DNA of 64,000 nt from an uncultured Gemmatimonadaceae bacterium. GTDB lineage: Bacteria; Gemmatimonadota; Gemmatimonadetes; Gemmatimonadales; Gemmatimonadaceae. The position numbers were made by a program, and so were the translations under genes. Numbering within the stretch: the stretch's first letter is position 1; the number at the start of each line of letters is the position of its first letter. Below are positions 1,510 to 62,877 of the stretch, in pieces. The stretch lies in the NCBI GenBank assembly GCA_963829055.1, contig CAWHHI010000011.1:224001-288000 (forward strand). The letters run 5' to 3'. The notes beneath the pieces are model-generated. The model made no database searches, had not been told where the DNA came from, and worked only from the letters and a program-made list of their open reading frames with translations.

Positions 1510-2517
1510 ATGAGAAGGCAGGCGCTGCTCTTCGTCACGCTTGCGTTGCTGTGCGCCGCCAGCGTCCCGGCTCGCGCCGACGAGTTCAAGCCGGCCTATC
1601 TCCAGCTCACGCAGATCGACGGCCAGACGTACGACGTCCTCTGGAAAATCCCGGCGACGGATGAATCGACGACGCTGAAAGTGACGCCGCAGTTCCCCGA
1701 GGGAACCGAGGTGCTGACCAGCGTGCGCAGTACATATTCGCGCGGGGTCACCGTGCAGCGCTGGCGCGTGCGTGTGCCGGGCGGGCTCGACGGGAAACCC
1801 GTGACCTTCTCCAATCTGTCGGAAACAAGGATTGACGTGCTGGCGCGGCTGGCGCGGCTCGACGGCACCGTGCAACTCGAGCGCATCCTACCGGTGAGCC
1901 CGCGATTCATCGCGAAGCCAAGTCCCGGACCACTGGAAGTCCTGAGGACGTACACCGTGCTCGGTATCGAGCACATTCTCACCGGGTACGATCACCTGCT
2001 GTACGTCCTCGCGATGTTGCTCCTCGTCAACGGCTGGCGGCGCATCGTCGCCACGATGTCGGCGTTTACCGCGACCCACAGCCTAACGCTGACCGCTGCC
2101 GCCCTTGGCTGGGTCCACGTCCCGCAGCCGCCGGTCGAAGCGTGCATTGCCCTGAGCATCCTCTTCGTCGCGCGCGAGATCGTGCAGCTGCAGCGCGGGC
2201 AGCCCGGGATCACCGCGCGCTGGCCGTGGGTCGTGTCGTTCACGTTCGGGCTGATGCACGGACTTGGTTTCGCGGGGGCCTTGGCGGAGGTCGGACTACC
2301 GCAGTCGTCGATCCCGATCGCGCTGCTCTTTTTCAACGTCGGCGTCGAGATCGGACAGCTCCTCTTTGTCGGCGCCGTGCTGACGCTGATTGCCCTGGGT
2401 TGGAAGGCCGTACGACAGTTCAGACTGCCGCCGCCTGTCTGGTTGTGGCGAGTCGCGCCGTATGCGATTGGCGCCGTCGCCAGCTTCTGGGTGGTCGAAC
2501 GCGTGGCGAAATTCTAG
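1510..2517 (+). CDS. HupE/UreJ family membrane protein
   Basis: Own signal peptide MRRQALLFVTLALLCAASVPARA; LGIEHILTGYDHLL, FTATHSLTL, FGLMHGLGFA, FNVGVEIGQL. Confidence 0.85.
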   Translation: MRRQALLFVTLALLCAASVPARADEFKPAYLQLTQIDGQTYDVLWKIPATDESTTLKVTPQFPEGTEVLTSVRSTYSRGVTVQRWRVRVPGGLDGKPVTFSNLSETRIDVLARLARLDGTVQLERILPVSPRFIAKPSPGPLEVLRTYTVLGIEHILTGYDHLLYVLAMLLLVNGWRRIVATMSAFTATHSLTLTAAALGWVHVPQPPVEACIALSILFVAREIVQLQRGQPGITARWPWVVSFTFGLMHGLGFAGALAEVGLPQSSIPIALLFFNVGVEIGQLLFVGAVLTLIALGWKAVRQFRLPPPVWLWRVAPYAIGAVASFWVVERVAKF

Positions 2518-2558
2518 CCAGGCGCCTGCTGAAGTACCGCTTCTAGAGTGCGCGACTG

Positions 2559-3406
2559 CTACCACTGGACGCGGCTGAGGTAAGGGTTCAGTCGGAGCGC
2601 CAACGTTTCGATCCAGGACGCTTTCTTAGGTGAGAACACGAACCGTTCAGCGCCACTTGCGATACGACGGTTGATCTCCTTAACGAGTGCGGCCTTGGCG
2701 GTGGCGCGGTACACCGCGCCCGGCTCACCTTGATAACTGCCGAGCAACCCAAGATTCGACCCGAGAGGGACTGTCAACTCCGACTGGTCAGTCCCAACAC
2801 CGACAGAATCGAAGAAAAAGCTGGGGTTGTCGGTAGTGAACAGGAACAGCGACCTAGGGACGTCTACGAGTCGCCAGGTCATACGCCGAATGGCATCGAC
2901 GGTGCGGGCGCTAGGCCACGGCTCGGCGAGTTCGCGGCGAATGAAAGCGGGTGTCTGTCGCTGGTAGTCTCGTTCGATCCGTTCAAGAACATCGAGCATC
3001 GCCCCGACTCGCTCAGAGTTGTCTTCTGTCGTGAGTTCCGCGAGCTCCCGCCGGGTGTCCGCCAAACTCGATTGAAGCACCTTGGGAAACAATTCCTCGC
3101 CTTTGCGACGCCGTCGGGGCACGCGCATGATCATGGCCGCGAGATAATAGGCGAATGCGTCCCGGCCACTCGAATCCAGCGTTTCGCCACGGCGGAGCCT
3201 ATCGAGTGCCCGATGGCCAGGAGCCTCGACTTCTATCGCGAGCCGTCGTTCTACGTCCGGCGCGTAGTAGTCAGGTTCTTGAGCCACCTTCGCGATGGCT
3301 GCGTGAGACCATCGGCAAGTTTTCTTGTCGAAAAGCCAGACGTGCGAACGGTCGGGTGTCGTCGCGAACCGCGCAGGAACTCTTGTGGGACGTAGTGCTT
3401 TCCCAT
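2559..3406 (-). CDS. DUF4238 domain protein, one frameshift near 3370
   Basis: ATG at 3406 gives MGKHYVPQEFLRG (family H-Y-V-P start motif), then a shift into the 2559..3455 frame containing FTTDNP. Appears lower in GC than its flanks. Confidence 0.75.
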
Positions 3407-3829
3407 CGACGGCCTGTCGGGGCTTTAGGCGGTTCCATGCGACCATGCGAGCCATGGCACATCACCGACAACAAACGGCTTCTCGATCGCGGCGAAATGG
3501 TGGGAGCGCAGAATGCGCTGCCGTCACGCGAGATTGAGCCAAGACAATACGGTTCCGCCCGAAGACAACGTACCACGTAACGTGGCGCGGGATGAGCAGC
3601 TCGCTGAATAAACCGCGACGTCACCATCGCGACCACATCGGATTTCGAACCTGATCGAGGGTTAAGCGCGGTCGGCGGAAACTATTACCCAACTTGCGTG
3701 TCCGTCACGTTGTAGTTGAAGCCCCACGCTGCACGCAAGCCGTTTCCCACGGCCTATGGCTCATCGCGACGAACTATTCGGTCAGGAGAGATCCGTCAGT
3801 AAGCGGCCGAGCGACTGACGCAAGGGCCG

Positions 3830-4540
3830 TCAATCGATCGCGCCTTGGATGCCAAGCGGATGAGCGGCCGGTATCGATTCCGGCGCGCGGGCCGCACGAA
3901 GGCGATCGTACACGCGGGCAGCAACCGCCATACCCGTCAACGGAGCGACCCAGTACAGCCAATGCGACGCCCACAGGCCACCGACGAACGCTGGACCTAA
4001 CGAGCGGGCGGGATTCATTGACGCGCCCGTGAGTGGCCCGCCGACCAGCGCACAAAACCCGACGGTGAGCCCGACCGCGAGCGGCGCGAAACCGTCGGCG
4101 ACGCGATCGTCGGTCGCCACCGCCATCACGACGAACATCAACACGAAGGACAGCAGCCACTCGATGCCGAACGCCCGAGCGACTGCCACCGATGGGAGAG
4201 TCGCGCCCATTTGCCCTACGGGGCCCAGCACCGCCCGAAGGACCACCGACGCGGCAATGGCCCCGATACACTGCGCGATGACGTACGGGAGAACGTCTCG
4301 CGACGGGAATCGTCCGACCGACCAGAAGGCGACCGTGACGGCTGGGTTAATGTGGGCGCCCGAGAGGTGGCCGAGCGCGAACACCATCGCGATCACGACG
4401 AATGCGAACGCGAGCGAGACGCCGACATGGCCGACTGCGCCGTGAGACCACGCGTTGACCATCACCGCGCCTGGCCCGACGAGTACGAGGAAGAACGTCC
4501 CGATTGCTTCCGCCGTGAGCCGACGACCGTCCAGTCTCAT
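3830..4540 (-). CDS. MIP family aquaporin/aquaglyceroporin, likely arsenical channel
   Basis: Two NPA motifs (SGAHINPAVT, GASMNPARS), multiple TM segments; last gene of the ars cluster. Confidence 0.92.
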   Translation of the reverse strand: MRLDGRRLTAEAIGTFFLVLVGPGAVMVNAWSHGAVGHVGVSLAFAFVVIAMVFALGHLSGAHINPAVTVAFWSVGRFPSRDVLPYVIAQCIGAIAASVVLRAVLGPVGQMGATLPSVAVARAFGIEWLLSFVLMFVVMAVATDDRVADGFAPLAVGLTVGFCALVGGPLTGASMNPARSLGPAFVGGLWASHWLYWVAPLTGMAVAARVYDRLRAARAPESIPAAHPLGIQGAID

Positions 4541-4622
4541 GTTCGTGTGTGGCAGGGTAAGCCTGGAGGAACGTTAGTATGACCTTCACTATGTCTGCTT
4601 CACGCCTTGCGGCGAACACGGC

Positions 4623-5396
4623 CTAACGCGTCGGAGCTACGATGTTCTCTAGCTTCCCGCCCGACCGGAGGTAATCGGCAAACTCGTGGGGTAGATCGCT
4701 TTCGAGAATGGCACGGGCGGTACGCTCCACGTCGTACTCGACTCGCACGAACTCGACGCGCGGTTGACCGTCGCCGACATCGAGCAACACGTAACCCGCC
4801 CGCCAGTCTCCGTCCTTCGGCCGACCCACGCTCCCCGTGTTCACGAAGTGGATGCCCTCGACTTCTCGATGCCACGGCTTGTGCGTGTGGCCAAAACACA
4901 CCACGTCACCCGCCTTGGCGCCAGCATGCTGCGCCATCTTCGAGCAGAAGGAGTCGGGCCGGTCCTGGTCCCAGTAGAGCGTGTTGAGCGTCGGCGTACC
5001 GTGGACCAGAATGACCGTAGGACCAGCGGTGTGCCCGCCTAACGGCTTCACGTCCATGCGGAATGGCAGTGCGCCTAGATGACCCTTGGCTTCGGAGGAG
5101 GTGTGGCGCCTGGTCCAGTCGTAGCTCGAGTGCGACAGCTCCTCCTGGCGCGGGTCCTCGTACCGGCAGCCGCAGTGCTTGTAGTCCGCGGCCACCGTCG
5201 AGTCGTAGTTGCCCGCGATGCCCGCGATGCCGTTCGCACGGAGCAGCTCGACCGTCTCGTTAGGCCACGGCGCGTACCCGACGAGGTCACCGAGATGATA
5301 CGTGGCAGCGATACCCGGACGGCCGGCAATGTCCGCGAGCACCGCTTCGAGCGCGGGGAGGTTCGCGTGAATGTCCGAAATGAGTGCGTAGCGCAT
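4623..5396 (-). CDS. Calcineurin-like metallophosphoesterase, ars-operon associated
   Basis: SDIHAN, LGDLVGY, GNYD, VHG, FGHTH, NTGSVG motifs; extra CGC motif. Confidence 0.9.
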   Translation of the reverse strand: MRYALISDIHANLPALEAVLADIAGRPGIAATYHLGDLVGYAPWPNETVELLRANGIAGIAGNYDSTVAADYKHCGCRYEDPRQEELSHSSYDWTRRHTSSEAKGHLGALPFRMDVKPLGGHTAGPTVILVHGTPTLNTLYWDQDRPDSFCSKMAQHAGAKAGDVVCFGHTHKPWHREVEGIHFVNTGSVGRPKDGDWRAGYVLLDVGDGQPRVEFVRVEYDVERTARAILESDLPHEFADYLRSGGKLENIVAPTR

Positions 5397-6031: not shown

Positions 6032-7021
6032 TTATCGGCAGCAGCCGTCGTCGCAACCGCAGTCGCGAGTCGCGTTAGGCTTCGGCTGCCTGGATGTCGC
6101 TGCGACGGGCGCAGTGGCGACGCTCGGCACACGCGGGCCAGGCTTCGTCGCCCGGACGAACCCGCTCATGATCTTGCCCTCGACCGCGTCCGCGAGCGAC
6201 ACGTCCAGGCCCGCGCCTTCCAGCAGCGCAGCGGCGTCTTCGCGGGTGTAGACACGCGTCGGCTCAATGGTCGCGTTCTCGAATCCTGCCTCCGTGAGGA
6301 GCGCGATGAAGTCGCGTTCTTCCAGTGCGCCCGCCACACAACCCGTCCAGAGCGGCATGCTGTCACGGACTGCAGTTGGCAGGCCCTCGCGTACGATGAC
6401 GTCGCTCACCGCGAACCGTCCGCCCGCCTTGAGCACGCGGAACGCCTCGTTGACGACCTTTCGCTTGTCGCCGGAGAGGTTGATGACGCAGTTGGAGATG
6501 ATGACGTCCACCGTGTTCGACGGCAGCGGAATCGCCTCGATGTGGCCCTTGAGGAACTCGACGTTCGTCGCCCCAGCCTTCTGCTTGTTCTCGACGGCCA
6601 GCGCGAGCATCTCGTCGGTCATGTCCACGCCGTACACCTTCCCTGTGGGTCCGACGCGCTTCGCGGACAGCAGCACGTCGATGCCGCCTCCCGAGCCCAG
6701 ATCGAGCACGGTCTCGCCCTCGCGCAGTTCGGCGAGCGCGGTGGGGTTGCCGCAGCCTAACGACGCCAGCAGCGCCGTCTCGGGCACCTGGCCCGCTTCC
6801 AGCGAGTCGTACAGGTCCGCCGTGATCGGGTCGCGGGTATCACTCGCGGAGCCGCAGCACGCCACCGCGCCAGCAGCCGGGCCGCAACAGCTCGCCGACG
6901 TTGCGCCTTGGGCGATACTCGACGCGACGGCGCCGTAGCGGGCCTGCACGGTGCTTCGGATGTCCTCCAGCGTGGTTGTCCCGGCCGTCGGAACGGAGCC
7001 TGCCGAATTCTGGCCTTGCAT
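6032..7021 (-). CDS. arsM: Arsenite S-adenosylmethionine methyltransferase
   Basis: LGCGNP, VLDLGSGGGID, GVDMTDEM, ISNCVINL, WTGCVAGAL; Cys pairs at both termini; AGGAGA RBS. Confidence 0.95.
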   Translation of the reverse strand: MQGQNSAGSVPTAGTTTLEDIRSTVQARYGAVASSIAQGATSASCCGPAAGAVACCGSASDTRDPITADLYDSLEAGQVPETALLASLGCGNPTALAELREGETVLDLGSGGGIDVLLSAKRVGPTGKVYGVDMTDEMLALAVENKQKAGATNVEFLKGHIEAIPLPSNTVDVIISNCVINLSGDKRKVVNEAFRVLKAGGRFAVSDVIVREGLPTAVRDSMPLWTGCVAGALEERDFIALLTEAGFENATIEPTRVYTREDAAALLEGAGLDVSLADAVEGKIMSGFVRATKPGPRVPSVATAPVAATSRQPKPNATRDCGCDDGCCR

Positions 7022-7520: not shown

Positions 7521-8399
7521 TCACTTCGTTCGGAATGGCAGTCCTGTGCAACGCATGCCCCCGCTCGCGAGCAACTGCTCGAAGCGTGGATTTGACCGCA
7601 ACGGATCGAAGAGCGGGTCACACGGCAGGCTCAGCTCCGTGGCCAGCATGTCACGGCGCTCAACCATGCGTCGCACCGCCGACAGCGCCGCCGCCGAGTC
7701 ACCTGCGCCCGCCGCGGCCACCGCGAAATCGTAGCCGTTGACGCGCCCCGCGGTGTAACCGCGCTGCAGCGCCGCGTACTCGGCATCCGCTTCGCGAATA
7801 CGGCCGAGGGTCCGATATGCCACGCTGAGATACGCCCGCATGTCGTAGACGAGGCCCAGTCGGCGAGCGGTCTCGAACGCACTCACCGCACTGTCCGCCC
7901 GTCCCTGAGCGAGCTGGATCATACCCTGAAACCACTAGAAGTCGTTCCTCGTGCTGTCGAGCGCGAAAGCGCGGCGCACCTCGGAGCGTGCGTCGTGGTA
8001 CCGTCGCCCTCGGATCGATGAACGGCAGTACGCCGAGGGAGCGTACTGCTCGTGCAGCGCTCGGGGTGATCGCGCGGCCACCAGACACCGGCAACGTTGG
8101 CGACGACTACCACGGCGACGGCAACGACGCCAGCCGTTCGACGCGAGGCCGTTGCCGCTCCCGCCGGGCATGCCCCAGGCGCGTGCCGGAAGCGGCGGTG
8201 TCGTTCGGAACGCGGACCAGCGCACCGGCGTTAGGCGGCCGCGCGACCTCGCTCCGATGCGCGGCGACCGTGGATTGGGCGCTCGTGTGAGCCGCGAACG
8301 GATGCCGACCCGTCAGCAGCTCGTAGGCCCCACGCCCCAGGCGTAGATGTCGGCACGTTCGTCCACGCCCGCGTCCCCGAGCGCCTGTTCGGGCGCCAT
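7521..8399 (-). pseudogene. Decayed Ser/Thr kinase-TolB-like-TPR gene
   Basis: Fragments in different frames: MAPEQALGDAGVDERADIYAWGV and AYELLTGRHPF (kinase subdomains VIII-IX), SLGVLPF, TPR-like tail ending DPLFDPLRSNPRFEQLL; N-lobe and internal parts missing. Confidence 0.7.
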
Positions 8400-9374: not shown

Positions 9375-11944
9375 ATGCTGTACCTTCGGACGCTCGGAGG
9401 CCTTTCGCTCGACGGCGGCGGTTCAGCGACACTCGTCGCCGGACAGAAAGCGCGACTCGCCTTGCTCGCCGTTCTCGCACTCGGAGGCCAGTCAGGAGTC
9501 AATCGCGAGAAGCTGCTCGCCCTGTTCTGGCCGGATAGCGACGTTGACCATGCGCGCGGCGCGCTGAAGCAGGCACTGTACGCCCTGCGCCGTCATCTCG
9601 GCGACAATGTCATCGTCGGAAACGGCGAGCTTCGTCTGAATCCCGGTGTGATTGGGACGGACGTCGGCGATTTCGCGGGCGCTCTTGCCGCGGGCGACCT
9701 GGAGGCAGTTGTCGCTCGCTACACCGGGCCCTTCCTCGACGGCGTTTTCCTCCGAAGCTCGGCGGAGTTCGAGCAGTGGGCTGACCGCGAGCGTGTGCGC
9801 ATCGCTCACACGTTCTGCGAGACGCTGCAGCGATTGGCCTGCGCGGCCGACGAACGCGATGACTACTCGAACGCCCTCGCCTGGTGGAGACGAGCCGCAT
9901 CGGAAAATCCGCTGGATAATCGGATTGCCGTTTCCCTCGTCCGGAGTCTGGCGCAGGGCGGCGATACTGCGGGTGCGCTGCGTCAGGCGGCTATCTATCG
10001 CGCAATCGCTAGCCGGGAAGTCGGCGACCACGCCGACCCGACGATGGACGCCGCGGTCGCGGCGGTTCAGTCCGGCTCGTTGTGCTCCATTGCCGATACC
10101 AGGTCCAATGTCGTCAGCTCACGGACGTCGACAATATCGCGCGAGACGGATGGTGAATCATCGCCCGAAGCCGCCGATAACAGTGCTGTCCCAACCCGCG
10201 CCTTGCTCGAACCGCCGGTGCACGTCACCTCGTCGCGGCCCTTTGTGCGACGATGGTTCCTGCTCGGCGTCGCGCTGAGTGGCCTCGTTGGGATCGTTGG
10301 ACTTGGCGCATGGCAGGAGCGCCGCGCCCTATCCGTGGAGGACACGGTTTCGGTGGTAGCGGCATGCGAGCCGCCCGTCAGCGCGTCGGCGCGCCAGTCA
10401 TCAACGGCGCCGCAGGGAGAACTGGGCGAGCTGGTTCGCGATCGCGTCGTGAGCGGGCTCACCGATCTCCACAGCGTGAAGGTCGTTAGGCAGGCCCGCA
10501 CGCGGTTTCTCGTCGTCGCGAGATGCCGAAACCTCGCCGATTCGATGGTCTTCTCAGCCGACATCATCGATCGGAACGCGGATCGGATTCTCACCACGAT
10601 CGGTCCGGCGTCCGCCCCGGTGGGGCAGCCCGGCGGCGGAGTCGAATTGCTGCGCGATCGCGTGATGACCGCTATCGCGCTGCGAGTGGACCCGAAGCTC
10701 AAGGCATGGGTGTACGCGTCGAACGCACCGTCGAATTACGAGAGCTATCGTGAGCTCCGCCTCGGCATCGACGCGTTCGTGGCGATGCAGCTCGCCGAGG
10801 CCACGTTGCATTTCGGCAAGGCGGCCGCGCTCGACCGTGCGTCTCCAACACCGCTCGTGTGGGCGGCGTTCGCGCGAGCCTACTATTGGGATACGGCTGC
10901 CGACTCCATTCTCGCGGAATTGGATGCGTCACATCGACGCATGGGCCCGTGGGACGATGCGATGGTCGCGCTCGTGAAGGCGTTCATGCGCGGGGACTTG
11001 CCGTTAGCCCATCGCGCCGCACATGCCGTGGCCGCCGCGGCTCCGAACTCGGAGTGGCGCGTGCTCGTGGCCTCGACCGCGATGAGTGAAAACCGCGCCA
11101 GGGAAGCCCAGCGAGTTCTCCGTGCTGTGGACCCTGCCGCTGGGTGGATAAACGGGTGGGAGTTCTACTGGGTGACGTTGGACCAGTCGCATCATTTGCT
11201 TGGCGATTTCCGTGACGAGCTTGGGGATGACCGACGGGCGTTGAAACACTGGCCTAACAATGGCCTTCTGATCGGCCTCGAGTTCAAGGCATTGCCAGCG
11301 TTAGGGTGGATCGACGAGCTCGAGCGCCGGTGGGATGAAGTCAGTTCGGTGCGCGAACGGAATCCGGCCTTCGGGTGGCTCGTCACAGGCAGCCGACGAA
11401 TTACGTGCGCACGTGGGTATCGTTGCGGCGCGACCGTTCTATGATCGGTTGATCACAGGGGAGCGCCAGAGCCTCAAGGAAGACCCAGCGAGCGAACAAG
11501 CAGAGACGAGAATCCATTGTGTGGTATCTCGCGGCGTCAGGTCGGGTGGACGCCGCACGAGTTGCGCTCGATTCGCTGCTGCCCGTGGGTCGAGTCCCGT
11601 CGTGGGGGCTGGTGGTCCTCGATGGGACGATATCGGCAATGCAAGGAGATCGAGACCGGGCTCACAAGGCGTTAGCGCAACTCGAACAAGCTTCGGTCCC
11701 CGAGGAAAAGAGAATCGGTCCGACGATCGGCCAATCTCTCGGACATCATTTCGAGGGGGACCGGATCACAATTCATGCTCTGCTCGGCGAAAAAGCGGAG
11801 GCGGTAGAACTCCTCCAGGAAACCACGCGCGCCGGCAACGCGTATCGCCACGTGCTACACGCCGTCCTAGGCCTGGACCTTCTGAAGGGCTATCCTCCGT
11901 TCGATGCACTCGTTAGGCCTGTCGACACGCCGGAGAGTCCGTAG
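9375..11944 (+). CDS. SARP-like wHTH-BTAD membrane-anchored regulator with C-terminal TPR region; frameshifts near 11390 and 11520
   Basis: LRTLGGLSL, REKLLALFWPDSD..ARGALKQALYALRR, Y.GPFLDG, FEQW; one TM (WFLLGVALSGLVGIVGLGAW); C-terminus LKGYPPFDALVRP. Confidence 0.85.
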
Positions 11945-12152
11945 CGCTCCGAGTGAGCTGCGAGCCGCCTCGTCGGGAAACGTACCAGGCGATCCGCCGA
12001 CACGCCGTCTTTGAAGTGGCGCGTACCGCGCGTGCGCGCGGAAGGCGCGTGCGTCGTCGCTCCCCCAGGGTGTACCGTTAGGCGACAGGACCCTCGGAAG
12101 TGCGGGGGGGCGAGTTGATCAGTCTCGCCGTCGCAGTGCGCGGGTTTCGCTG

Positions 12153-13381: not shown

Positions 13382-13979
13382 TCGCGTGGTGGTCGCACGC
13401 TTCTCAGGCGCTGGCCGGGGGCGCGGAAGTCCGGCAGGCTGACGGATTTTCCGAGACAGCCGTCGTCACGCGCCGCTGTTATCACCGCTCGAGGTGCCTG
13501 GGCCGCCGCCAAGGGCGCGGAACACATCCGAACCGGTAGAAGAACTACAACCAACACCGACTGCCTAACGCTTGGCTTCCTTCTGGCGACATCGATCAGT
13601 CGCAGGGCCCGCACGCGGCGAGCGGCACGGACCTTCGCCGTACGCCATCGCGACGCGTCATCACGCTCGACGACTCGGGCAACCTGCTCTGGCGACAGTT
13701 GCGGAAGCTCGAGCGCATGACGGCGTTAGGTTTGTCAGTCGTAGCCGATAGGTTCGAGTGCATCAACGCGTCGGGGACGCACCCAAGGCGTTCTCGGCCA
13801 CGCAGATTGGGCGCACATCCTCACGAAAAAAATGCGATCGACCTCGTGCGGATAAAGTGCGACACGTCGCTCTCCAACGTACCGATCATCACGCCGTGAC
13901 GGCCGCACGGCGAGTCAGTCCTTCCTCGGCGAGGCATAGCGATCGATCCGCAACGCCGACTCACCAAAGGAGTTCCTAC

Positions 13980-17196: not shown

Positions 17197-17999
17197 GCGA
17201 CTCCTCCTGACCTCGTGACTTCCCTTCCCCACTCGGGTCTCCCGCACGTCCTCGTCCCTCCGCTGTCGTCGCGCGTGACGCGCGAACCCCTCGGCCAATC
17301 GCCGACTCGTCGTACCGCGCCAGCAACTCGGCCGGATCGTCGTAGATCTCCGCGGCGTCCTTGAGCGCATCGTCACCCCAGCCGCCGCCGCGCAGCGCGA
17401 CGATCCTCACGCGCGCGCGACCCGCCGCCTCCACGTCGTACGGCGTGTCGCCCAGCATCACGCATCGCTCGTTACCCACGCCCGCCTTGTCGATCGCGAC
17501 GCGCACGATGTCAGGGTCGGGTTTCGAGCTCTCCGCGTCGCTCGAGCTCGTCGCTTCATCGAGCAGCCACTCCGCGCCTAACGCTTCGAGCAGGCCTTTC
17601 AACTCATCCTCGCTCGCCGACGTCGCCACCACCAGGCGGAGACCATCCGCGCGCATGCGCGCGAGGAGATCGTTCGCGTGAGGGAATGGCCGCACCGATG
17701 GCAGATACTCCTTGGAGAAGATCTCCTTCCGCCGCTCCACCAACTGCTTGCCCTGTCTCGCTGTCCGCCTCAATGCCCGTGAGTTGCGGTAGCAGCTTGT
17801 CCGCACCCATGCCGACGAGCGGGCGCACGGTCTCCGACCCTATCTGAAGGCCCGCTTCCTCGAGCGTGTCGGACCACGCCTGCGCGTGCGCATCATTGCT
17901 GTCGAGCAGCGTGCCGTCGATGTCGAGCAGCACGGCTTCGACCGCGCCTGACGCGGCGCGGTCGGCGGCGTTAGGCGTGTCCGCGGGGCGGCCGGTCAA
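17180..17999 (-). CDS. HAD family hydrolase, frameshift near 17755
   Basis: [27 protein letters not shown] across two frames. Confidence 0.88.
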
Positions 18000-19820: not shown

Positions 19821-19872
19821 AACGATGACTGCCATCCCACGCGTTTTTACATGGGACTCAACGTTCCTGCGT

Positions 19873-20478: not shown

Positions 20479-20689
20479 ATGTGTCTCCTCCTTCGAGTGA
20501 ACCCGCTTACAGACGAGCAGAGGGGGCAAGAGTCGTGCTTGCAGCGGCTCAGCAGTAGCGATTCACACGTCCCGGACGAGCTTACGCATCAGACAGGCTC
20601 GGCCATGTGCATAACGCGCGCGGCGATGCCGACATGCGGCTGCTAGCAGGCACCCGACTGCCGCTCACTCGGAATGACAGCGCGAGCCG

Positions 20690-23993: not shown

Positions 23994-23995
23994 GC

Positions 23996-53446: not shown

Positions 53447-54667
53447 ATGTCTCTCGTTCCCGCGTCTTCGGGGGCCTTCACGGCCGGCAGTGCGTTTCAT
53501 CATGACTTCCTGATCCGCAGCAACGCCCCGCGCAGCGCCGATGCTCCGATTGAGTCCGATCCCCTCGGGCGGCTGGAGCGGGCGGTTGCCGTCGCGCTGT
53601 CACCGTTCGACTACGCCGACGCCACGGCCTGGGCAGACGCTCTCACGGCGGCTCTCTGCACCGTCGCCGGCGCGGACGCGGGATTCGTCCTGCTGCCGGG
53701 CACTTCCCTTCCGTGGCGTACGGTCAGCACGGGAGCGAACGCGGACGCGACAGGCCCAGGCTCCAGTTCTCCACTGCACGACGAGATCACCGAACAGCTT
53801 CGCACCGGGGCCAGCGGAGACCTCGTGCTCTGGGCGCGTGACGATCTTGCCGACACCGCCGTCCAGCCGACCACGATCACACCTCGTCACACCGTCGGCA
53901 TCCGCGTCCGCACCGATCGTGGTGCGGTCGCCGCGGTGTGCATGGAGCGGCACCCCGACCTCGGCCCCGCCCCGCACTACCTGCTGGCGTCACTCCGGGC
54001 GATCGCACCCGCCTTCCGGGCCGGCGTGAACACATGGGTCAGCGCCACCGCGGCCCAGACGAACATCGCCCAGATGCTCGACTCGCTCACTGACGCCGCC
54101 CTGCTGTTCGACGCTGCCGGTACGCTCGTCCACGCGAATGCGGCCGCGGACCGCCTAACGTCTGCGGCGGACACCGCGCGCCTGCGCCGCGAAACGCAGC
54201 GCATCGCCTGGGCCCTCGGCGCGATCGCGCATCGCCGCGCGACGGCGAGCCGCGGGCCGGCCGTTCGGTCGCACGATGCGTCGCAGTCGGCGACGCCTAC
54301 CACGCAGAGTGTTCGGGTGGGTGCCACGGTGTACCAGCTTCGCGGAACAATGGTTGGCGAGCAGCTGACTGGTGCCAAACCCGCCGTGCTGATCACGATC
54401 ACCGTCGCCGCCGCAAAGCCGCTGACGGACGACGAGCTCCAGGCCGAGTATGGATTGACCGCGCGGGAGACGCAGGTGGCGCGGCTGATCGATGAGGGAC
54501 TGTCCAACAACGAGATCGCCGATCGGCTGGGCGTCCGGTTCTTCACCGCCCGCAATCACGTGGAGCGTACGCTCGCGAAGCTCGGCGTACCGAGCCGAAA
54601 TCGCGTCGGGCCGCTGCTGCGCACTGGGGCGGAACCTTGCGACTCGAATAGGGCGACGGCGGCCTGA
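53447..54667 (+). CDS. LuxR-type C-terminal HTH regulator with PAS-like region
   Basis: LTARETQVARLI.EGLSN.EIA.RLG...FTARNHV...LAKLG; LDSL...LLFD..G.LVHAN. Confidence 0.88.
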   Translation: MSLVPASSGAFTAGSAFHHDFLIRSNAPRSADAPIESDPLGRLERAVAVALSPFDYADATAWADALTAALCTVAGADAGFVLLPGTSLPWRTVSTGANADATGPGSSSPLHDEITEQLRTGASGDLVLWARDDLADTAVQPTTITPRHTVGIRVRTDRGAVAAVCMERHPDLGPAPHYLLASLRAIAPAFRAGVNTWVSATAAQTNIAQMLDSLTDAALLFDAAGTLVHANAAADRLTSAADTARLRRETQRIAWALGAIAHRRATASRGPAVRSHDASQSATPTTQSVRVGATVYQLRGTMVGEQLTGAKPAVLITITVAAAKPLTDDELQAEYGLTARETQVARLIDEGLSNNEIADRLGVRFFTARNHVERTLAKLGVPSRNRVGPLLRTGAEPCDSNRATAA

Positions 54668-55255: not shown

Positions 55256-57962
55256 CTACTCGGACGCCACCTTCGAGTCCTTCGGCTTGTTCGCGTTCTT
55301 CACGTAGATGTCGAGCCACGCCGTCCACCGCGCCCACTGGTCGAGAATCGTCTCCTTCGTCGCCGGGCCGTGATCCTCGTACGGATACATGTACAGCGAC
55401 GCGACTTTGCCGAGCCCCTGCAGCGCGTGCATCATGCGGATCGAGCTGATCGGATCCGTGCCGACGTTCTGGTCCTCGAGCGAGTGATACATGAGCAGCG
55501 CGCCCGAGAGCTTGTCGGCCTTGAAGAACGGCGACATGTCGAGGTACGTCTTCTGCGCCTTCCCAGAAGTCGCGACGCTCGTTCTGGAACCCGTTAGGCG
55601 TGAGCGTGCGGTTGTACATGCCGTCGCCCGCGATGCCCGCCTTGAAGAACGGCGTGTTCACCATCGCGTTCACGGTGCTGAACGCGCCGTAGCTGTGGCC
55701 ACCGATGCCCGAGCGCGGCTGCGGTCGATGTAGCCCTGCTTGTCCAGCTCATCGATCACCGCCGTCAGGTTCGCGACGAGATCGGTCACGTAGTTGTCGT
55801 TCATCCGTCCGTTCGACGCCGACGATCGGCGGATCGAAGTTCGCGACGGCGTAGCCCTGCGTGACGAGGTACTCGATCGTGCGCGGGCCGGCCTGCGGGA
55901 ACTGGTTGATGTTGTTCGTGCGCAGCGTGCGATCGTACCCGCCTGATCGGTGAACTCGTACGGGTAGAACCAGAACATGGCCGGGAGGCGCGTGCCCGGC
56001 CGGTAGTCCGACGGCAGCGTCAGGTTCACCATGAACTTGTAGCCGTCCGCGCGCGTCACCGGGATGCGCTTGCGGATCGCCGCCGTGAACTCCGGCGTGT
56101 AGTCCTTGTTGTTCGTGAGCTTCGTGTACTGGCCGGACTGCGCCGTCGCGCAGATACGAGTCCGGCACCTGCGTCGGCGACTCGCGCGACGACGACGAAC
56201 TTCGTGAAGTCATCGTCCAGCGCGGCCGTCACCGTCTCGTACATGTCGGCCTGGCCTTCGAACACGCGCGACTTCTGACCGGTCTTGATCTCGACCTTGT
56301 CCACGAAGCCGTGCGGCGCCGAGTCCTGCCACGTCTTGAAGTAGCGCGTGCCCTCGAGGAACGCGTACTTGCCGTCCGTGGACAGCTGGGCGACCTGCAC
56401 GCCGATTGCGACCGCGCTTCGCCACGATGGTGCCGGGGTTCTGGTAGAACGTCAGCGAGTCAGCGCCGGTGCCGCCACGACCGCCACCGCCGCCGAACCC
56501 ACGGCCGTCGCCGCCGACGGTCGCGTTGAGCCCGCGCACGCGCCAGATCGTGTACTTCTTGCCCGGCTCGTCGAAGTAGACCGCGTACACGTGACCGGTG
56601 CCGCTCGCGTTCTCGGCCACGAACACCGACTTCGCATCGTCCGTGAACAGCACGCCACCGATGCGGTTGTCGCTCTCGAGCAGCAGCTTTCTTCGACGAC
56701 GCGTCGAACGGCGGCGTCCACTGATAGAGATGGTCCTTCCGACGCGCGCCACCCGGCCGCCCTGCGGCGCCGCGTCGCGTCGTGTCGGCCGGCGCGCGCC
56801 AGCACCGCGCGGCGGACGCCGAATCCTGCTGCAGGAAGTAGATCCCGGCCCGTTAGGCATCCAGCCGACGTTGCGCGGCAGCGCTGTCGTTCGCGCCGGC
56901 GCCCGGCGGGCCGAAGCTGTCATCATCGCCGCTCGTCACTTCGCGCAGCGGACGGTTCGCGACCTCGCGTCAGCATCTTGCCGTCGCGTCCCAGATCTGC
57001 TCCGACGTGCCGAACGAGTTGTACTGCACGATGTAGGAGAACGGCTTCTGCATGAGCGTCACGTGGAAGTACTTCCCGTCCGGCGACGCATCGACGGCCG
57101 AGATCATCCCCGGCGCGCCGATCTTCTTGACGCTGCCGCTGCTCGACGTTGATCGTCGCGAGCTGGCCGGTGACGTAGTACTCCATCAGCTCCTTCTCGA
57201 ACGGATCGCGGAGGAGGCTCGCGAAGTTGCGGGTCTTCTCCTTCTTCTCGTCCGTCAGGCGGACGAGCGGGCCGGTCTCGATCGCCGGACGCTTCGGCTC
57301 CGCCTTGCGTGCATCCGGAATCAGCACCGTGACGAGCTGGCTTCCGTCCGCCGTCCAGTCGACCGTCGTCACGAGCGTCGCGAGCAGCGCGCGCGGCGAC
57401 ACCTGGCGCGACTTGCCGGTCGCGAGGTCGGCGACGTAGAGCCGCGAGGCATCGTCGAAGTTCGCGATGTAGGCGAGCTTCGATCCGTCGGGCGACCACT
57501 GCGGGCTGCTGACGCTCGCGCCCTTCGGCGTCTCGATCGTCGCGCGACTGGCCGGTGCTCGCGTCGATGATCGCGAGGCCGGCTCGACCCGCGCGTCGTG
57601 AGGGCCCGCGCGCGGTTCGCCTTGTAGTCGACCTGCAGCCCGGCGAAGTAGTAGTGCGGCTTGCCGAACGTCTGGACGCTCGGCAGCCCCTCACTCTGCA
57701 GCTTGAGGAAGTACTTCCGGTTCGGGCTCTGGTTGTTGACAGCGTCACGTTGTTCTGTCGCGGCGCCGTGACGAGCCGCTCGATCGCCGCGGGCGGCTTC
57801 ACGTACGTCTCGGCCGCCAGCCGCTCTTTGGGCGGAAGCTCTTCCTTGCCGTTGTCGGCGCTGTTCTGTTGCGCTCGCGCGCCAACGGCGCGATCGCGAC
57901 GGCAAGGGCCGTCGGGAGCACGAAGCGCTCGCGTGGACAATGCGACGGAACGAGAGGGGCAT
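55256..57962 (-). CDS. S9 family peptidase, frameshifted
   Basis: WSPDG, LTLP.DY, GGHSYGAF, YNRTLTP.GFQ.E.R, DQNVGT, YPYEDHG. Confidence 0.88.
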
Positions 57963-58181: not shown

Positions 58182-59954
58182 ATGAAGTCGCTGATTCTGC
58201 GTCTGCGCTCGCCTCATCCGCGGCCGTCACATGATCTGCGTCGTCGCGGTCTCTCGCACGTCCGTCGCGCGTCAGCCGTCGGCCAACGCATCAGCGCGTC
58301 GCGCGACACCGGCGTCGTCGCGTCGCGGCGCGGCGTCGTCGTGTCCGTCTCTGGGCATCGCGTCGGACGTCGGCGCGTCGGTGCTGCGCGCGGTGGCAAC
58401 GCCGTCGATGCCGCCGTCGCCACGGCGTTCGCCCTCGCCGTCACGCACCCGAGCGCCGGGAACCTCGGCGGCGGCGGGTTCATGATCGTGCGAACGGCCG
58501 ACGGCAAGGCGACCACGTTCGACTATCGCGAGCGCGCGCCGCGGCGCCGCGACGCCGACGATGTATCTCAAGACCGACGGCACGATCGACCGGTCGCTCA
58601 CCGCGCGGGATGGCTCGCCCCGGGCGTGCCCGGCACCGTTCGCGGACTCGCGACTCGCCCACAAGAGATTCGGCAAGCTGCCCGTGGGCCGACGTCGTAC
58701 GGCCCGCGGCGCGACTCGCGTTAGGCTTCCCGCTCTCGAAGGCGCTCGCGTCGAGCCTCAATTCGACCGTCGCGCAAGCACATGGCGCCGTTCCCGTCGT
58801 CGGTCGCGGCGTACGGGAAGCCGGGCGGCGGAAGCTGGGCCGCGGGCGACACGATCCGACCTGACGGATCTCGCTCGCACACTCGACGCGATCGCGTCGA
58901 AGCGGGCCCAACGCGTTCTACACCGGCTGGATCGCCGACAGCCTCGCCGCGCAGATGAAGGCGAACGGTGGCCTGATCACGAAGGCCGATCTCGCCGCGT
59001 ACGAGGCGAAGGAGCGCGCGCCGGTTCGCGGCACGTTCAACGGCTATGACGATCATCGCGATGGGCCCGCCGAGCTCCGGCGGCACCGTGATGCTCGAGA
59101 CGCTCAACATCCTCGAGAAGTTCGACGTCGCGAAGATGGACCGCTGGTCGCCGGACTATCTGCATCTCCGCATCGAGGCGGCGCGACGCGCGTACGCCGA
59201 CCGCGCGCGCTGGCTCGGTGACCCGGACTTCGTGTCGGTGCCGGTGGCGCGCCTAACGTCGAAGGCGTACGCCGACACGCTCGCGCGCGGCATCAAGCGC
59301 GATCGCGCGTCGAGCAGCGTCGAGATCGGCGCGGACATCGTCACGGTCGCGCGCCGCCGAGTCCGATGAGACGACGCACTTCTCGGTCGTCGACGGCGCC
59401 GGCAACGCGGTGTCGAACACGTACACGCTCGAGGGCGGCTACGGGTCGGGCGTCGTCGTTCGCGGCGCCGGCTTCATTCTCAACAACGAGATGGGCGACT
59501 TCAACAAGAAGCCCGGCGAGACGAACGCGGCGGCGACATCGGCACGCCCGCGAATCTGATCGCGCCAGGCAAGCGGATGCTGAGCTCCATGTCGCCCGCG
59601 ATCGTGACGCGCGATGGGCGTCTCGTCCTGGTGACGGGATCACCGGGCGGCCGCACCATCCCGAACACGGTCCTCGACGTGGTGCTGGGGGTGACGGCGT
59701 TCGGCGAACTCGATCCGCAGGCGGTCGACGCGCCGCGCCTGCACCACCAGTGGCTCCCGGACTCGACGACGATCGAGCCGGGCAAGGTGAGCGACGCGAC
59801 GATCGCGGCGCTTCGCGCGCGCGGCCAGGCCGTGCGCCTCTCGACCGGACGACAGGGCGATGCGCACTCGATCTGGGTCGACCCGAAGACCGGCATCGCG
59901 TACGGCGCAGCCGACCACCGCAGCCCGGACTCGAAGGCGAGCGCGCCGCGTTAG
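58182..59954 (+). CDS. ggt: Gamma-glutamyltransferase, frameshifted
   Basis: GGNAVDAAVA, GNLGGGGF, DYRE.AP, PPSSGG, ETTHFSV, LNNEMGDF, LSSMSP, GSPGG. Confidence 0.92.
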
Positions 59955-60242: not shown

Positions 60243-61561
60243 GTGTCACGATTCCCGCAGATACCGCCCCCAGCCCACGCGCGCTTCACCCCGCCTGGCT
60301 CGCGCTCGCCGTCACGTTTCTCGTCCTGCTCGTCTGCTGCCGCCGTTCGCGCGACGCCGAGCGTTCTGTTCCTCCCACTCGAGCAGGAGTTCCACTGGTC
60401 GCGGTCGACCGTCTCGCTCGCCGTTTCGGTCAACATTCTGCTCTACGGTCTCGTCGGCCCGTTCGCCGGCGCGCTCATGCAGCGTCTCGGCGTTAGGCGC
60501 ACGACGCTGATCGCGCTCACGCTGCTCGCGGGCGGCGTCTCGCTCGCGACGCTCGTCAGGCAGCCCTGGCAGCTCGTGCTCGTCTGGGGCGTCGTCGTCG
60601 GCGCCGGCAGCGGAATGGCGGCGCTCGTGCTCGGGGCCACGATCGTCAACCGCTGGTTCGTCGCGCGACGCGGACTGGCCATGGGCATCCTGACGGCGAG
60701 CACCGCGACCGGGCAGCTCATCTTCCTGCCGCTGCTCGCTTCGCTCATCGAGCGACACGGGCTGGCGGTTCGGCGATTCTCATCGTCGCCGCGGCGGCCG
60801 CGCTCATGATCCCGCTCGTGTTCGTCGCTGCTCCGCGAGCGCCCGAGCGATCTCGGCATTGCGCACCGTACGGCGGAACGGTCGACACACGCACCGACGG
60901 CCGCCACGGCGAATCCCGCGCGCGTCGCCATTCAGGCGCTCGCCGACGGCCTGCGGTCGCGCGACTTCTGGCTGCTCACGCTCACGTTCGTGATCTGCGG
61001 CGCGTCGACGAACGGCCTCGTGGGCACGCACCTCATTCCGGCCGCGCACGACCACGGCATTCCCGAGGTTCGCGCGGCAGGCCTGCTCGCGATCATGGGC
61101 GTCTTCGACCTCGCCGGCACCACGGCGTCGGGCTGGCTCTCGGATCGCTGGGACAGCCGGCGGCTGCTCGCCTGGTACTACGGGCTGCGCGGGCTGTCGC
61201 TGCTCTTCCTGCCGTTCGCGCTCGGCGACACCCGGAGGACCGCGCTCTGGGTCTTCGCCGTGTTCTATGGACTCGACTGGATCGCCACCGTGCCGCCGAC
61301 CGTGAAGCTGGCGACGGACGCATTCGGCGCCGCACGCGCGCCGGTCATGTTCGGGTGGATCGCGGCCGGGCATCAGGTCGGCGCGGCGCTCACCGCGCTC
61401 ACCGCTGGCTGGGTTCGCACGACGTTAGGCGACTACCAGGTCGCGTTCTGGGGCTCGGGCACGCTGTGCCTCGTCGCCGCGCTGCTGGCGCTGCAGGTGG
61501 GTCGCGGGTCGCGCGGCGTCGCGCACCGGCGTTAGGCGCCGCCGGCGTTCCCGCGAGCTGA
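60243..61561 (+). CDS. MFS transporter, frameshifted
   Basis: VRATP, RWF..RRGLA.G, ATGQLIFLP, ICGASTNGL.GTH.IP, GWLSDR, ATVPPT. Confidence 0.88.
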
Positions 61562-61582: not shown

Positions 61583-61619
61583 CGAGGGGCCCGCGCTCGT
61601 TACGAGCGCGGGCCCCTCG
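61583..61619. terminator. Terminator hairpin between convergent genes
   Basis: CGAGGGGCCCGCGCTCG-tta-CGAGCGCGGGCCCCTCG, 17-bp stem. Confidence 0.75.
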
Positions 61620-61629
61620 CGCTTCGACG

Positions 61630-62592
61630 CTAGCACGTTGGCGCTAGCGCGCGCGATCCTGCAACGCGTACGCGAGCGAGTCGACGCAGTGCGCGGCGAG
61701 CTCGTTCGAGTCGTACGCGTAGCCGGCGACGTCTTCGCTCCGCCACTGCCAGTCCTCCACGCGCGTCGCGTCTGCGCGGAGCACCGTCTCGCGAAGCGGT
61801 ACCGCGCCCGGGCCACCGCTCGAACCGGCACTTCCCGACATGGCCTTCCCACTCGATGATCATGAGGCGACCCGTCGCCACCGTGTCGGGCCGCGTGCGT
61901 ACCCACGACAGCGTGAGCGCCACGGGCCCCAGCTGCACCGTGCACCGATTCGGCACGCGATGCACTTCGAGCGGCGTCTCGACATCATCGCGATTGACGG
62001 TCGCGACACGCTTCGTCACTTCGGCCGCCAGTCGATCGAACTCCCGGCCCAGGTGCGTGATCGCGCGGTGTGACCCGAGAAACGAGTCACGCTGCTGCGA
62101 GCGACGCGCTGATCGGCGACAGGGATCTCGACCACCACATCCGACGCGGCCTGGCGAGTCGCGCCACCGAGATCCGCGACGGCGCTGACGATCCAGTCGG
62201 CGCATTGATCCGACGTGCACCCAGCGCTCGCGACGGCGATTTGCGGAGCCACGTCGGCGGCGTCGTCCGATCGAGCAGAACGACACGGACCGAGTCCGGC
62301 CCCTTCGCCGTGATGCGGCGTTTGATGGCCGTCCGCATCGTCTTTCGTCGTCGCGTCCTTGCCCCAGAGATGCTGGTGCAGCACCACGACCACGCGCGCG
62401 GTCTTCCCGAACACTGCCGGCGCGCGGCGCGTCGAGCAGCTCGGTCGCCGCGGTGGTCCACACGGGACGCAGCGGCGGAATGCTGGGGAGCCGAAGCGTC
62501 AGCTGTCGCTCGAGCTCGCGCAGCAGGCGGGCATCGTGCTCGACCGACGACACGGCCACGTCGAATGCGAAACTGGATGGCTTGCTGATCAA
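61630..62592 (-). CDS. Hypothetical protein with degenerate TIR-like N-terminal domain, frameshifted
   Basis: Stitched: FDVAVS..EHD....ELER.L, VFGKTARVVVVL....WG, AIKRR, VVLLD..PPTWL. Confidence 0.5.
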   Translation of the reverse strand: MISKPSSFAFDVAVSSVEHDARLLRELERQLTLRLPSIPPLRPVWTTAATELLDAPRAGSVREDRARGRGAAPASLGQGRDDERRCGRPSNAASRRRGRTRSVSFCSIGRRRRRGSANRRRERWVHVGSMRRLDRQRRRGSRWRDSPGRVGCGGRDPCRRSARRSQQRDSFLGSHRAITHLGREFDRLAAEVTKRVATVNRDDVETPLEVHRVPNRCTVQLGPVALTLSWVRTRPDTVATGRLMIIEWEGHVGKCRFERWPGRGTASRDGAPRRRDARGGLAVAERRRRRLRVRLERARRALRRLARVRVAGSRALAPTC

Positions 62593-62598
62593 CGGTCG

Positions 62599-62820
62599 TT
62601 ACCCCTTGTGACGGAACGTGATGCGACCGCGAGTGAGGTCGTACGGCGAGACCTCGACCGTCACGCGGTCGCCGTTCAGGACGCGAATACGGAATCGACG
62701 CATCTTGCCCGCGAGCGTCGCGATGACCGAGTGCCCATTGTCGAGCGACACGCGGAACATGGCGCTCGGGAGCACGTCAGACACGATTCCGTCGAGAGCC
62801 AGTGCTTCTTCCTTCGACAT
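62599..62820 (-). CDS. infA: Translation initiation factor IF-1
   Basis: [22 protein letters not shown]...[21 protein letters not shown]. Confidence 0.97.
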
Positions 62821-62877
62821 GCATGCCCTCCACCAGAGTTGATGCGGGCGCTACGCCGCCTAACGAGCGTGCGGGTC

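Follow-up and report, generated by a model that had tools for sequence, protein, structure and literature searches.

A 64 000-nucleotide stretch of DNA from an uncultured Gemmatimonadaceae bacterium (assembly GCA_963829055.1, contig CAWHHI010000011.1, positions 224001-288000; C11:224001-288000 of assembly G000 in our numbering, hereafter the window) is studded with one short non-palindromic word, CGTTAGGC, which reads GCCTAACG in the other orientation (TCGTTAGGC is another way of writing the same word). We find that selection or drive, and not protein coding, maintains this word as a DNA-level signal. Our tentative preference, held with rather less than even confidence, is that CGTTAGGC serves as a stand-alone, strand-symmetric genomic tag resembling DNA uptake sequences and spread by molecular drive. 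That uptake or transformation would be the process behind it we infer from the likeness of its anatomy to the DNA uptake sequences (DUS) of Neisseriaceae and the uptake signal sequences (USS) of Pasteurellaceae. The word is also, letter for letter, the crossover core of the local integrons, a point that the initial annotation of the window had missed.

Exact counting returned 49 copies of CGTTAGGC/GCCTAACG in the window (31 on the plus and 18 on the minus strand), whereas 100 dinucleotide-preserving shuffles of the window gave a mean of 1.17 copies and a maximum of 4. The shorter heptamer GTTAGGC/GCCTAAC occurs 52 times against 2.32 expected. The initial annotation, made by eye, had called at least 52 heptamers (about 32 and 20 by orientation) and about 49 octamers; the totals, the orientation split and all the coordinates it gave were recovered, and the enrichment it described is confirmed. 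Its assumed GC content of about 69% was too high, since the window runs at 0.64-0.69 per 4 kb and the genome at 0.667, and the chance expectation accordingly falls below the 2-3 octamers that it had allowed for.

The enrichment extends to the whole assembly (7.78 Mb in 20 contigs, 66.7% GC, 86% complete), where we counted 5004 copies, 2547 forward and 2457 reverse, or one per 1.56 kb. Every one of the 20 contigs carries the word, contradicting its restriction to a single contig, which the initial annotation had named as an outcome that would speak against it. The genome-wide comparison with a Markov model that it proposed leaves the enrichment standing: an order-3 model expects 130 and 127 copies on the two strands, which are exceeded 19.5- and 19.3-fold. 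This ratio of about 19 is the highest among all octamers with at least 200 copies in the assembly, and by raw count the word ranks about 30th despite a GC content of only 50%. Alignment of the 5004 copies revealed next to no conservation in the flanks (at most 0.13 bits at the two positions adjoining the word and at most 0.06 bits elsewhere), which makes CGTTAGGC a free-standing word and not the core of a longer repeat. The hallmark of repetitive extragenic palindromic (REP) or miniature inverted-repeat transposable element (MITE) families, conserved sequence past the core, was not seen in this alignment, and a codon-periodic GC signal in the flanks indicates that most copies lie within genes.

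The two strands are used almost equally, and orientation follows replication only faintly. Neighbouring copies are co-oriented in 2589 of 4984 cases (51.9%), and over 137 bins of 50 kb the orientation skew shows only weak Spearman correlations, 0.19 with GC skew and 0.12 with gene-strand skew. The strong strand skew with a switch at origin and terminus that marks FtsK-orienting polar sequences (KOPS) or architecture-imparting sequences was not seen in G000. Spacing is more regular than random: gaps below 100 bp make up 1.4% of the total against 6.3% under a Poisson model, and the 5% gap quantile lies at 214 bp against 78 bp. Some words that differ from CGTTAGGC by one letter are themselves above expectation, namely TGTTAGGC (4.4-fold), CGTTAGGT (5.2-fold) and CGTTATGC (7.2-fold), and changes at positions 2, 5 and 7 show no such enrichment.

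Protein coding does not account for these copies. Using a crude set of 6537 open reading frames (ORFs) chosen by GC content at third codon positions (GC3) and covering 80% of the genome, we found the word in every frame: 1257 copies read NCG-TTA-GGC, 947 CCT-AAC, 629 CTA-ACG and 574 GTT-AGG, 385 fall in the two frames where it yields TAG or TAA, and 1212 lie outside ORFs. Those within ORFs are divided between sense (2008) and antisense (1784). When synonymous codons were permuted within each ORF, leaving both the protein and the codon usage of the ORF unchanged, 170±12 in-ORF copies remained (maximum 202 in 30 shuffles) against 3439 observed; the enrichment thus persists under the codon-preserving control suggested with the initial annotation. 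The word makes use of the rarest codons, and in the ORF set it holds 1268 of 3077 TTA (41%) and 633 of 4905 CTA codons. It is also 2.7-fold concentrated close to stop codons, 679 of the 5004 copies lying no more than 30 bp away against 248±13 for random places, and a few inverted pairs in G000 form terminator-like hairpins.

How individual copies arose could be followed in an 18 kb stretch carrying rpoB and rpoC (L111), whose nine copies were aligned to 20 relatives. Four of the rpoB/rpoC copies align across 12 to 14 other genera, which at these sites read GCCGAGCG, GCCCAGCG, CGTCAGGC and similar, and G000 reached the word through silent leucine changes, in which CTC/CTG became TTA by two substitutions or CTG became CTA. 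Within the aligned genomes of its own genus, labelled g1, the word is kept in 7 of 11 site-by-genome comparisons, and one copy is unique to G000. Subsets of g1 have copies in common, and single species have gained others of their own. Viewed from the other side, 11 distinct g1 copies align fully to L111: seven coincide with a G000 copy, at three further ones G000 still has CGCTCGGC, CGCTCGGA or GCCTCGCA, and one more aligns with gaps (seven rows of this comparison are duplicate, partial or unaligned loci). These differences within the genus indicate that gain and loss of the word are still under way. The proposal of the initial annotation that selection or biased repair preserves the word is therefore upheld as regards a DNA-level signal, by the use of all frames, the rarest codons, the synonymous shuffle and the silent double substitutions in rpoB and rpoC.

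In the window, 34 of the 49 copies lie inside the crude ORF set and 15 outside, with frames NCG-TTA-GGC (13), GTT-AGG (7), CCT-AAC (6), CTA-ACG (5) and TAG stop (3). They are given below by window coordinates, each of the first 49 lines being a copy of CGTTAGGC, followed by the three sites that match the heptamer only.

2081..2088, minus strand, copy in ORF, antisense NGC-CTA-ACG
4621..4628, minus strand, copy giving the TAG stop of ORF 4623..5396(-)
5037..5044, minus strand, copy in ORF, sense NCG-TTA-GGC
5258..5265, plus strand, copy in ORF, antisense CCT-AAC
6073..6080, plus strand, copy in ORF, antisense CCT-AAC
6755..6762, minus strand, copy in ORF, sense NCG-TTA-GGC
8229..8236, plus strand, copy outside the crude ORF set
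10484..10491, plus strand, copy in ORF, sense GTT-AGG
11911..11918, plus strand, copy outside the crude ORF set
12076..12083, plus strand, copy outside the crude ORF set
13563..13570, minus strand, copy outside the crude ORF set
17576..17583, minus strand, copy in ORF, sense NCG-TTA-GGC
17969..17976, plus strand, copy outside the crude ORF set
18279..18286, plus strand, copy outside the crude ORF set
20688..20695, plus strand, copy between ORFs 19825..20646 and 20717..21322; no listed ORF stops there
21768..21775, minus strand, copy outside the crude ORF set
23988..23995, plus strand, copy giving the TAG stop of ORF 23058..23993(+)
24588..24595, plus strand, copy in ORF, sense NCG-TTA-GGC
24642..24649, plus strand, copy in ORF, sense NCG-TTA-GGC
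27821..27828, plus strand, copy in ORF, sense NCG-TTA-GGC
28702..28709, plus strand, copy in ORF, sense GTT-AGG
31071..31078, minus strand, copy outside the crude ORF set
32857..32864, minus strand, copy in ORF, sense NCG-TTA-GGC
33718..33725, plus strand, copy outside the crude ORF set
35005..35012, minus strand, copy outside the crude ORF set
36253..36260, minus strand, copy in ORF, sense NCG-TTA-GGC
36878..36885, plus strand, copy in ORF, sense NCG-TTA-GGC
38232..38239, minus strand, copy in ORF, sense NCG-TTA-GGC
38576..38583, minus strand, copy in ORF, sense GTT-AGG
39897..39904, minus strand, copy outside the crude ORF set
40281..40288, plus strand, copy in ORF, antisense CCT-AAC
40978..40985, minus strand, copy in ORF, sense NCG-TTA-GGC
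42257..42264, plus strand, copy in ORF, antisense CCT-AAC
43067..43074, plus strand, copy in ORF, antisense CCT-AAC
44400..44407, plus strand, copy in ORF, sense GTT-AGG
47534..47541, plus strand, copy outside the crude ORF set
48137..48144, plus strand, copy in ORF, sense GTT-AGG
48508..48515, plus strand, copy in ORF, sense NCG-TTA-GGC
49156..49163, plus strand, copy in ORF, antisense CCT-AAC
50687..50694, plus strand, copy in ORF, sense GTT-AGG
54153..54160, minus strand, copy in ORF, antisense CTA-ACG
55592..55599, plus strand, copy in ORF, antisense CTA-ACG
56851..56858, plus strand, copy outside the crude ORF set
58719..58726, plus strand, copy outside the crude ORF set
59251..59258, minus strand, copy in ORF, antisense CTA-ACG
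60491..60498, plus strand, copy in ORF, sense GTT-AGG
61423..61430, plus strand, copy in ORF, sense NCG-TTA-GGC
61530..61537, plus strand, copy flagged as TAG stop, end of a crude-set ORF
62858..62865, minus strand, copy in ORF, antisense CTA-ACG
11252..11258, minus strand, heptamer-only copy, GCCTAAC then A
21117..21123, minus strand, heptamer-only copy, GCCTAAC then A
24874..24880, plus strand, heptamer-only copy, T before GTTAGGC

Three stop codons had been ascribed to the word; those at 4623 and 23991 hold, and the one at 20690 does not, no listed ORF of at least 60 amino acids ending there. Elsewhere in the window, phosphoglucomutase and M14 peptidase fragments at 38361-39617 and 47688-48563 have a frameshifted or truncated look. 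Public sequencing runs contain only 8-13% of sampled words of window positions 40001-50000, and the contigs built from four such runs are short and mostly 90-95% alike, most likely deriving from relatives; these runs were set aside as evidence on the word.

Among the nearest relatives of the source organism, all seven g1 genomes hold 2501-5112 copies, genus g5 holds 605 and the other 13 genomes hold 3-65. We extended the count to 151 Gemmatimonadaceae genomes from 77 genera, with the reversed word as control, which is a rough yardstick since the TA step, itself rare, is missing from it. Copy numbers are distributed bimodally: 91 of the 151 genomes fall below half of the control count (median 4 per Mb), while 48 exceed it 1.5-fold and 27 fivefold, with a peak of 1327 per Mb in genus g14. 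The 48 enriched genomes span at least 33 sampled genera, and their forward share is 0.50±0.017. In k-mer counts of fetched stretches the word ranks first or second by observed/expected ratio in g53, g78, g5 and g1, and in those from the non-enriched genomes G008, G064 and G055 no octamer rose above 4.3 times expectation. Long one-strand runs in g53 and g78 were discounted, the fetched stretches showing both orientations mixed. In genus g5 (L001-L013, G010:C1; 248 kb) the variant CGTTTGGC outnumbers the canonical word, with 54 copies (5.6 times expectation) against 28, which looks like a dialect shift. The non-enriched genus g49 (G116:C1:1000001-1200000, L192-L201) over-represents AACGTCTA 16-fold, with 21 copies in 200 kb, and AACGTCCA 6-fold; AACGTCTA may be a different tag. 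One genome of the otherwise enriched genus g54 (G120) has only 66 copies and two rpoC matches at 84% identity, and is possibly a mixed bin.

Carriers of the word do not form a single lineage. RpoC identity was dropped as a proxy for kinship, being too flat at 83-89%, and a tree was built from RpoC of the 30 best-matching genomes (a single gene, with groups defined after a first tree had been seen). Eleven enriched genomes group in one supported clade, and the enriched g1, g25, g81, g46, g60 and g53 are scattered among non-enriched genera. The tree needs at least five changes of state, three of them forced by strongly supported branches, and a single enriched clade is rejected (approximately unbiased test, p 1.5e-92). 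In 162 genomes sampled from the rest of the phylum, enrichment is confined to genus g109 of family f2, where three genomes reach 1.7-3.9 times the control. A finished record of a cultured species also carries the word: 50 kb of the 1.1 Mb plasmid 1 of Gemmatirosa kalamazoonensis KBS708 (NZ_CP007129) holds 36 copies against 0.8 expected. The recurrence in relatives that the initial annotation had proposed to look for is thus found, both in independently assembled genomes and in this finished record.

None of 401 sampled Verrucomicrobiota genomes is hyper-abundant in the word. The highest balanced count is that of G381 (299 copies in 4.9 Mb), where a 290 kb sample contains 21 copies against 2.1 expected (10-fold), dispersed and with unrelated flanks. 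This genome (L288-L307) also carries a longer dispersed repeat, with octamers such as TCAGGACT and GGACTCAG occurring 56-70 times in 290 kb. The sole Verrucomicrobiota genome above 1.5 times the control, G497, was discounted as strand-lopsided (168:6), and a Verrucomicrobiota metagenome-assembled genome reached via L045 shows no enrichment. The initial annotation had called the signal lineage-specific; it is indeed lineage-restricted, but wider than one lineage, reaching 48 of the 151 family genomes, a second family and, modestly, a Verrucomicrobiota genome. Some of the genomes counted are unpublished (G021, G047, G048 and G146 for the family; G021, G205, G234 and G306 in the rest of the phylum; G349, G374 and G477 in Verrucomicrobiota), on which no named example rests.

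The core site (R box) of integron attC recombination sites has the consensus GTTRRRY; GTTAGGC fits it, and the word adds the C that usually precedes it. The few copies in genomes G013, G015 and G017 are clustered in one orientation, every 0.5-1.3 kb, and these dense one-strand clusters, first candidates for the dispersed word, were rejected as such, being integron cassette arrays. Each array repeat consists of GCCTAACA (the inverse core), a hairpin-forming middle and CGTTAGGC at the end, and 23 plus-strand attC ends in a 20 kb array of G015 (L014, G015:C95:1-20000) read CGTTAGGC. Large chromosomal cassette arrays were seen in family f2 genomes (L014, L016-L021). G000 itself encodes an integron integrase at C20:208041-208958(-), scoring 265.7 bits against a cut-off of 265, and attC-like sites starting with GCCTAACG adjoin its 3' side (C20:183800-209000). 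The listed word copies in this one examined array lie mostly at attC ends; the array stands on the unusual side of intI.

The dispersed copies, in contrast, are not attC sites, in which an inverse core 50-140 bp upstream pairs with the core into a hairpin. Their flanks are not conserved. In G000, 41 pairs within 35-140 bp are in attC order against 30 in the opposite order, and for 5004 copies there are just 8 hairpin-forming inverse-core/core pairs, of which one was counted on both strands. Other words of the form GTTRRRY are not enriched like the canonical one, CGTTAGAC standing at 0.15 times expectation and CGTTAAGC at 24 copies. Integrons are very common in the family, with the integrase IntI (E<=1e-50) in 96 of 151 genomes, and its presence does not follow the word (33 of the 48 enriched genomes have it against 63 of the remaining 103, an odds ratio of 1.4 with p 0.47 when relatedness is left out of account); IntI is found in none of the three genomes of g14, the densest genus.

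Long word-free gaps coincide with DNA that looks foreign. Three gaps of 31-50 kb without any copy lie at contig ends of G000 (C6:5440-55037, C11:1-46789 and C6:591808-623330; L232-L239), while the Poisson expectation for gaps above 20 kb is 0.013. These blocks encode FtsK, FolD, ribulose-phosphate epimerase and 3-deoxy-D-arabino-heptulosonate 7-phosphate (DAHP) synthase among other housekeeping genes, of which G000 has further copies only 47-59% identical; such divergent second copies make the blocks look foreign. They are probably chimeric joins, the simplest explanation, or large foreign inserts. Across the genes of G000, word density climbs with GC3 from 0.37 to 0.74 per kb. Among 46 viral contigs found with the doubled word, most carry only the seed and two carry the word well beyond it, both encoding terminase, portal and capsid proteins. 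One of these is a tailed phage, IMGVR_UViG_3300015615_001045 (49.2 kb, 70% GC; L311, L310, L241), with 18 copies (0.37 per kb) and genes for terminase, portal, major head protein and, at its end, an integrase. The integrase marks it as a temperate phage, whose word load can reflect long residence in a host. Four of its copies lie within 190 bp upstream of the small terminase gene. On the second phage contig, a cluster in L271 (9980-10015), between large terminase and portal, was set aside as a 7-bp tandem repeat, CGTTAGG/CGTTGGG.

Candidate readers of the word were sought among methyltransferases, nucleases and import genes. The N6_N4_Mtase, N6_Mtase and C5 DNA_methylase families have no match in the 86% complete G000, which has one D12-class adenine methyltransferase, frameshifted. 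Orthologues of the latter occur in 67 of 151 family genomes, with and without the word, and in none of the three g14 genomes, so that the methylation option raised by the initial annotation loses ground. RecC was not found in G000; an AddAB-like gene pair lies at C15:9162-16046 in fragmented form, and the N-terminal part of its AddB, used as query, has matches in only 5 of the 151 family genomes, which belong to g1 and to the non-enriched g4. Many G000 genes look frameshifted or truncated (for example at C8:134573-135776 and C15:9162-16046), which suggests long-read indel errors rather than pseudogenes. As to import, ComEC was present in all 21 relatives examined, a secretin in 148 of 151 family genomes and a weak ComEA-like HHH_3 domain in G000. 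Of the candidates tested as readers, namely IntI, the D12 methyltransferase, the AddB-like gene, the secretin and ComEC, none follows the distribution of the word.

We postulate that an uptake-type tag could have filled these chromosomes as follows. A putative DNA-binding component of the import route would prefer word-bearing fragments; word-bearing alleles would be taken up and recombined into kin more often; and this transmission bias would write the word into any position that tolerates it, silent rarest-codon sites, spacers and stop codons among them, until a fragment of about 1.5 kb generally held a copy. In favour of this reading we count the density of the word, its indifference to reading frame, its strand symmetry and even spacing, its concentration near stop codons, its silent origin in rpoB and rpoC, the word-free blocks that look foreign, the import genes, the dialect-like shift in g5 and the lack of any hyper-abundant octamer in the stretches of G008, G064 and G055. 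Several points weigh against it. Among the papers listed in our literature search, none shows uptake or transformation for any Gemmatimonadota. The import genes are equally common in genomes without the word and hence do not account for who carries it, and ComP_DUS (PF16732) has no match in G000, a result of little weight, since this model matched no control genome either. DUS and USS drift into dialects over comparable distances, whereas CGTTAGGC is unchanged across at least 33 genera, separate RpoC branches, a second family and one Verrucomicrobiota genome (10-fold). The word load of the temperate phage fits any process acting on resident DNA and not uptake specifically, and a plain uptake tag leaves the exact identity with the attC core unexplained.

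This identity, together with the unchanged word in separate lineages, motivates a variant that we regard as distinctly unlikely, namely that the tag copies the attC core, the single sequence common to all integron cassettes: cassette-bearing DNA would be preferentially imported, coupling transformation to integron capture, and drive would then have filled the chromosomes. Convergence on the attC core, or transfer of the reader, would explain the same letters in separate lineages, the second family and Verrucomicrobiota. In Vibrio cholerae, transformation feeds cassettes to the chromosomal integron, as described in part of PMC12614218. A more direct link to integrons, in which the copies would be binding or landing sites of IntI (attG-like) or footprints of cassette traffic, seems to us very doubtful. 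The word does equal the attC core with its preceding C, local attC ends use it, IntI is widespread, and a portion of 10.1101/2022.09.11.507474 describes insertion of cassettes by IntI at genomic GWT sites. The abundance of the word is nonetheless independent of IntI, down to its absence from g14, the hairpin pairs, pair orders and other GTTRRRY words speak against attC structure, and cassette insertion or excision cannot write silent in-frame substitutions into rpoB.

Chi-type self-marking, in which a helicase-nuclease or defence system would read the word and protect the DNA or direct its repair while selection keeps the copies regularly spaced in both orientations, agrees with a short over-represented octamer that is evenly spaced and missing from foreign blocks, with the word-bearing temperate phage and with the AddAB-like pair of G000. 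Its polarity is nearly nil, however, RecC is not found in G000 and the AddB-like gene is confined to five genomes, and it would fall to selection by itself to maintain 5000 sites that use the rarest codons, rpoB and rpoC included; the Chi-like recombination proposed in the initial annotation has therefore lost ground, and we consider it unlikely. Much the same degree of doubt attaches to biased repair or gene conversion, by which a sequence-specific enzyme, either a mismatch nicking enzyme or a system linked to a methyltransferase like that proposed for HIP1, would turn near-matches into the word in all replicating DNA, with or without a function. The presence of the word on chromosome, 1.1 Mb plasmid and temperate phage alike and the position-specific spectrum of one-off variants would suit such an enzyme, while the missing N6_N4_Mtase, N6_Mtase and C5 matches in G000 and the D12 distribution offer no candidate, and a repair bias acting locally would not be expected to thin out close pairs. 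We know of no repair system with an 8-bp asymmetric specificity. A chromosome-architecture site, bound at regular intervals by an abundant nucleoid-associated protein or one of the structural maintenance of chromosomes (SMC) type, would fit the over-regular, orientation-free spacing and the presence on both chromosome and megaplasmid; it is quite improbable to us, there being no candidate protein, 91 of the 151 family genomes doing without the word and three sampled ones without a substitute, and weak selection at each site probably being too little to impose the rarest codon on core genes. Finally, an assembly or base-calling artefact could be imagined from the many frameshifted genes of G000, such as the D12 methyltransferase and the AddAB-like genes. 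The comparable density in six other g1 assemblies (260-1170 contigs) and the enrichment of 47 further family genomes, the finished record NZ_CP007129 and the orthologous sites shared across assemblies reduce its probability to practically nil.

If the uptake-tag reading of CGTTAGGC is correct, the phenomenon extends to another phylum, in the common soil family Gemmatimonadaceae. To our knowledge, sequence-specific DNA uptake tags have been experimentally established in only two proteobacterial families; HIP1 has lately been put forward as a third case (PMC13756078). About a third of the sampled family genomes (48 of 151) carry the word enriched, against the codon habits of their genes as shown in G000, and with Gemmatirosa kalamazoonensis KBS708, a carrier in culture, the matter can be put to a direct test. 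That the word coincides with the attC core and recurs across lineages also raises the question whether gene-cassette exchange in soil is channelled by the tag. In practical terms the word sharply separates native from foreign DNA, having exposed three contig ends of G000 that are probably chimeric or foreign, and it may help to link phages to hosts and could serve as a binning check. The initial annotation knew of no description of the word, and among the papers listed in our literature search there was likewise none that describes it as a bacterial genome signature.

Of the known systems, Chi shares with CGTTAGGC an over-represented word of 5-8 nucleotides that runs through core genes and is lacking in foreign DNA. 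Chi sequences of Escherichia coli and Bacillus, read by RecBCD and AddAB, are co-oriented with replication and need a cognate RecC or AddB, whereas CGTTAGGC has almost no polarity, G000 has no detected RecC and the occurrence of the AddB-like gene does not match that of the word. Integron attC and attI sites have the same letters, including the preceding C, and are used by integrons of the same order, but solitary CGTTAGGC copies come without inverse core, hairpin or cassette and their abundance is independent of IntI. The cyanobacterial highly iterated palindrome HIP1 (GCGATCGC) is likewise an octamer of very high abundance, quasi-regularly spaced and patchy in its phylogeny, as described in parts of PMC13756078 and PMC4390886; its function was unknown for decades and is now, according to a portion of PMC13756078, proposed to relate to uptake. 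The same portions of this literature have HIP1, a palindrome, recognised by two methylases, whereas CGTTAGGC is asymmetric and G000 shows no matching methyltransferase repertoire. DUS and USS differ from CGTTAGGC in that no uptake bias and no competence are known for its carriers and that G000 gave no match to the ComP model, which matched no control genome either, in showing dialects where CGTTAGGC is unchanged across many genera and in another phylum, and in that few CGTTAGGC copies form terminator pairs and the word equals an integron core site. They are, like CGTTAGGC, short non-palindromic words present about once per kb and equally on both strands, in the sections of PMC1939737 and PMC3630211 on which we draw. 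Further shared traits are the use of all frames and of spacers, over-even spacing, lineage restriction and absence from foreign DNA. Judged by this analogy, and functional test aside, the anatomy of CGTTAGGC matches that of DNA uptake sequences point for point.

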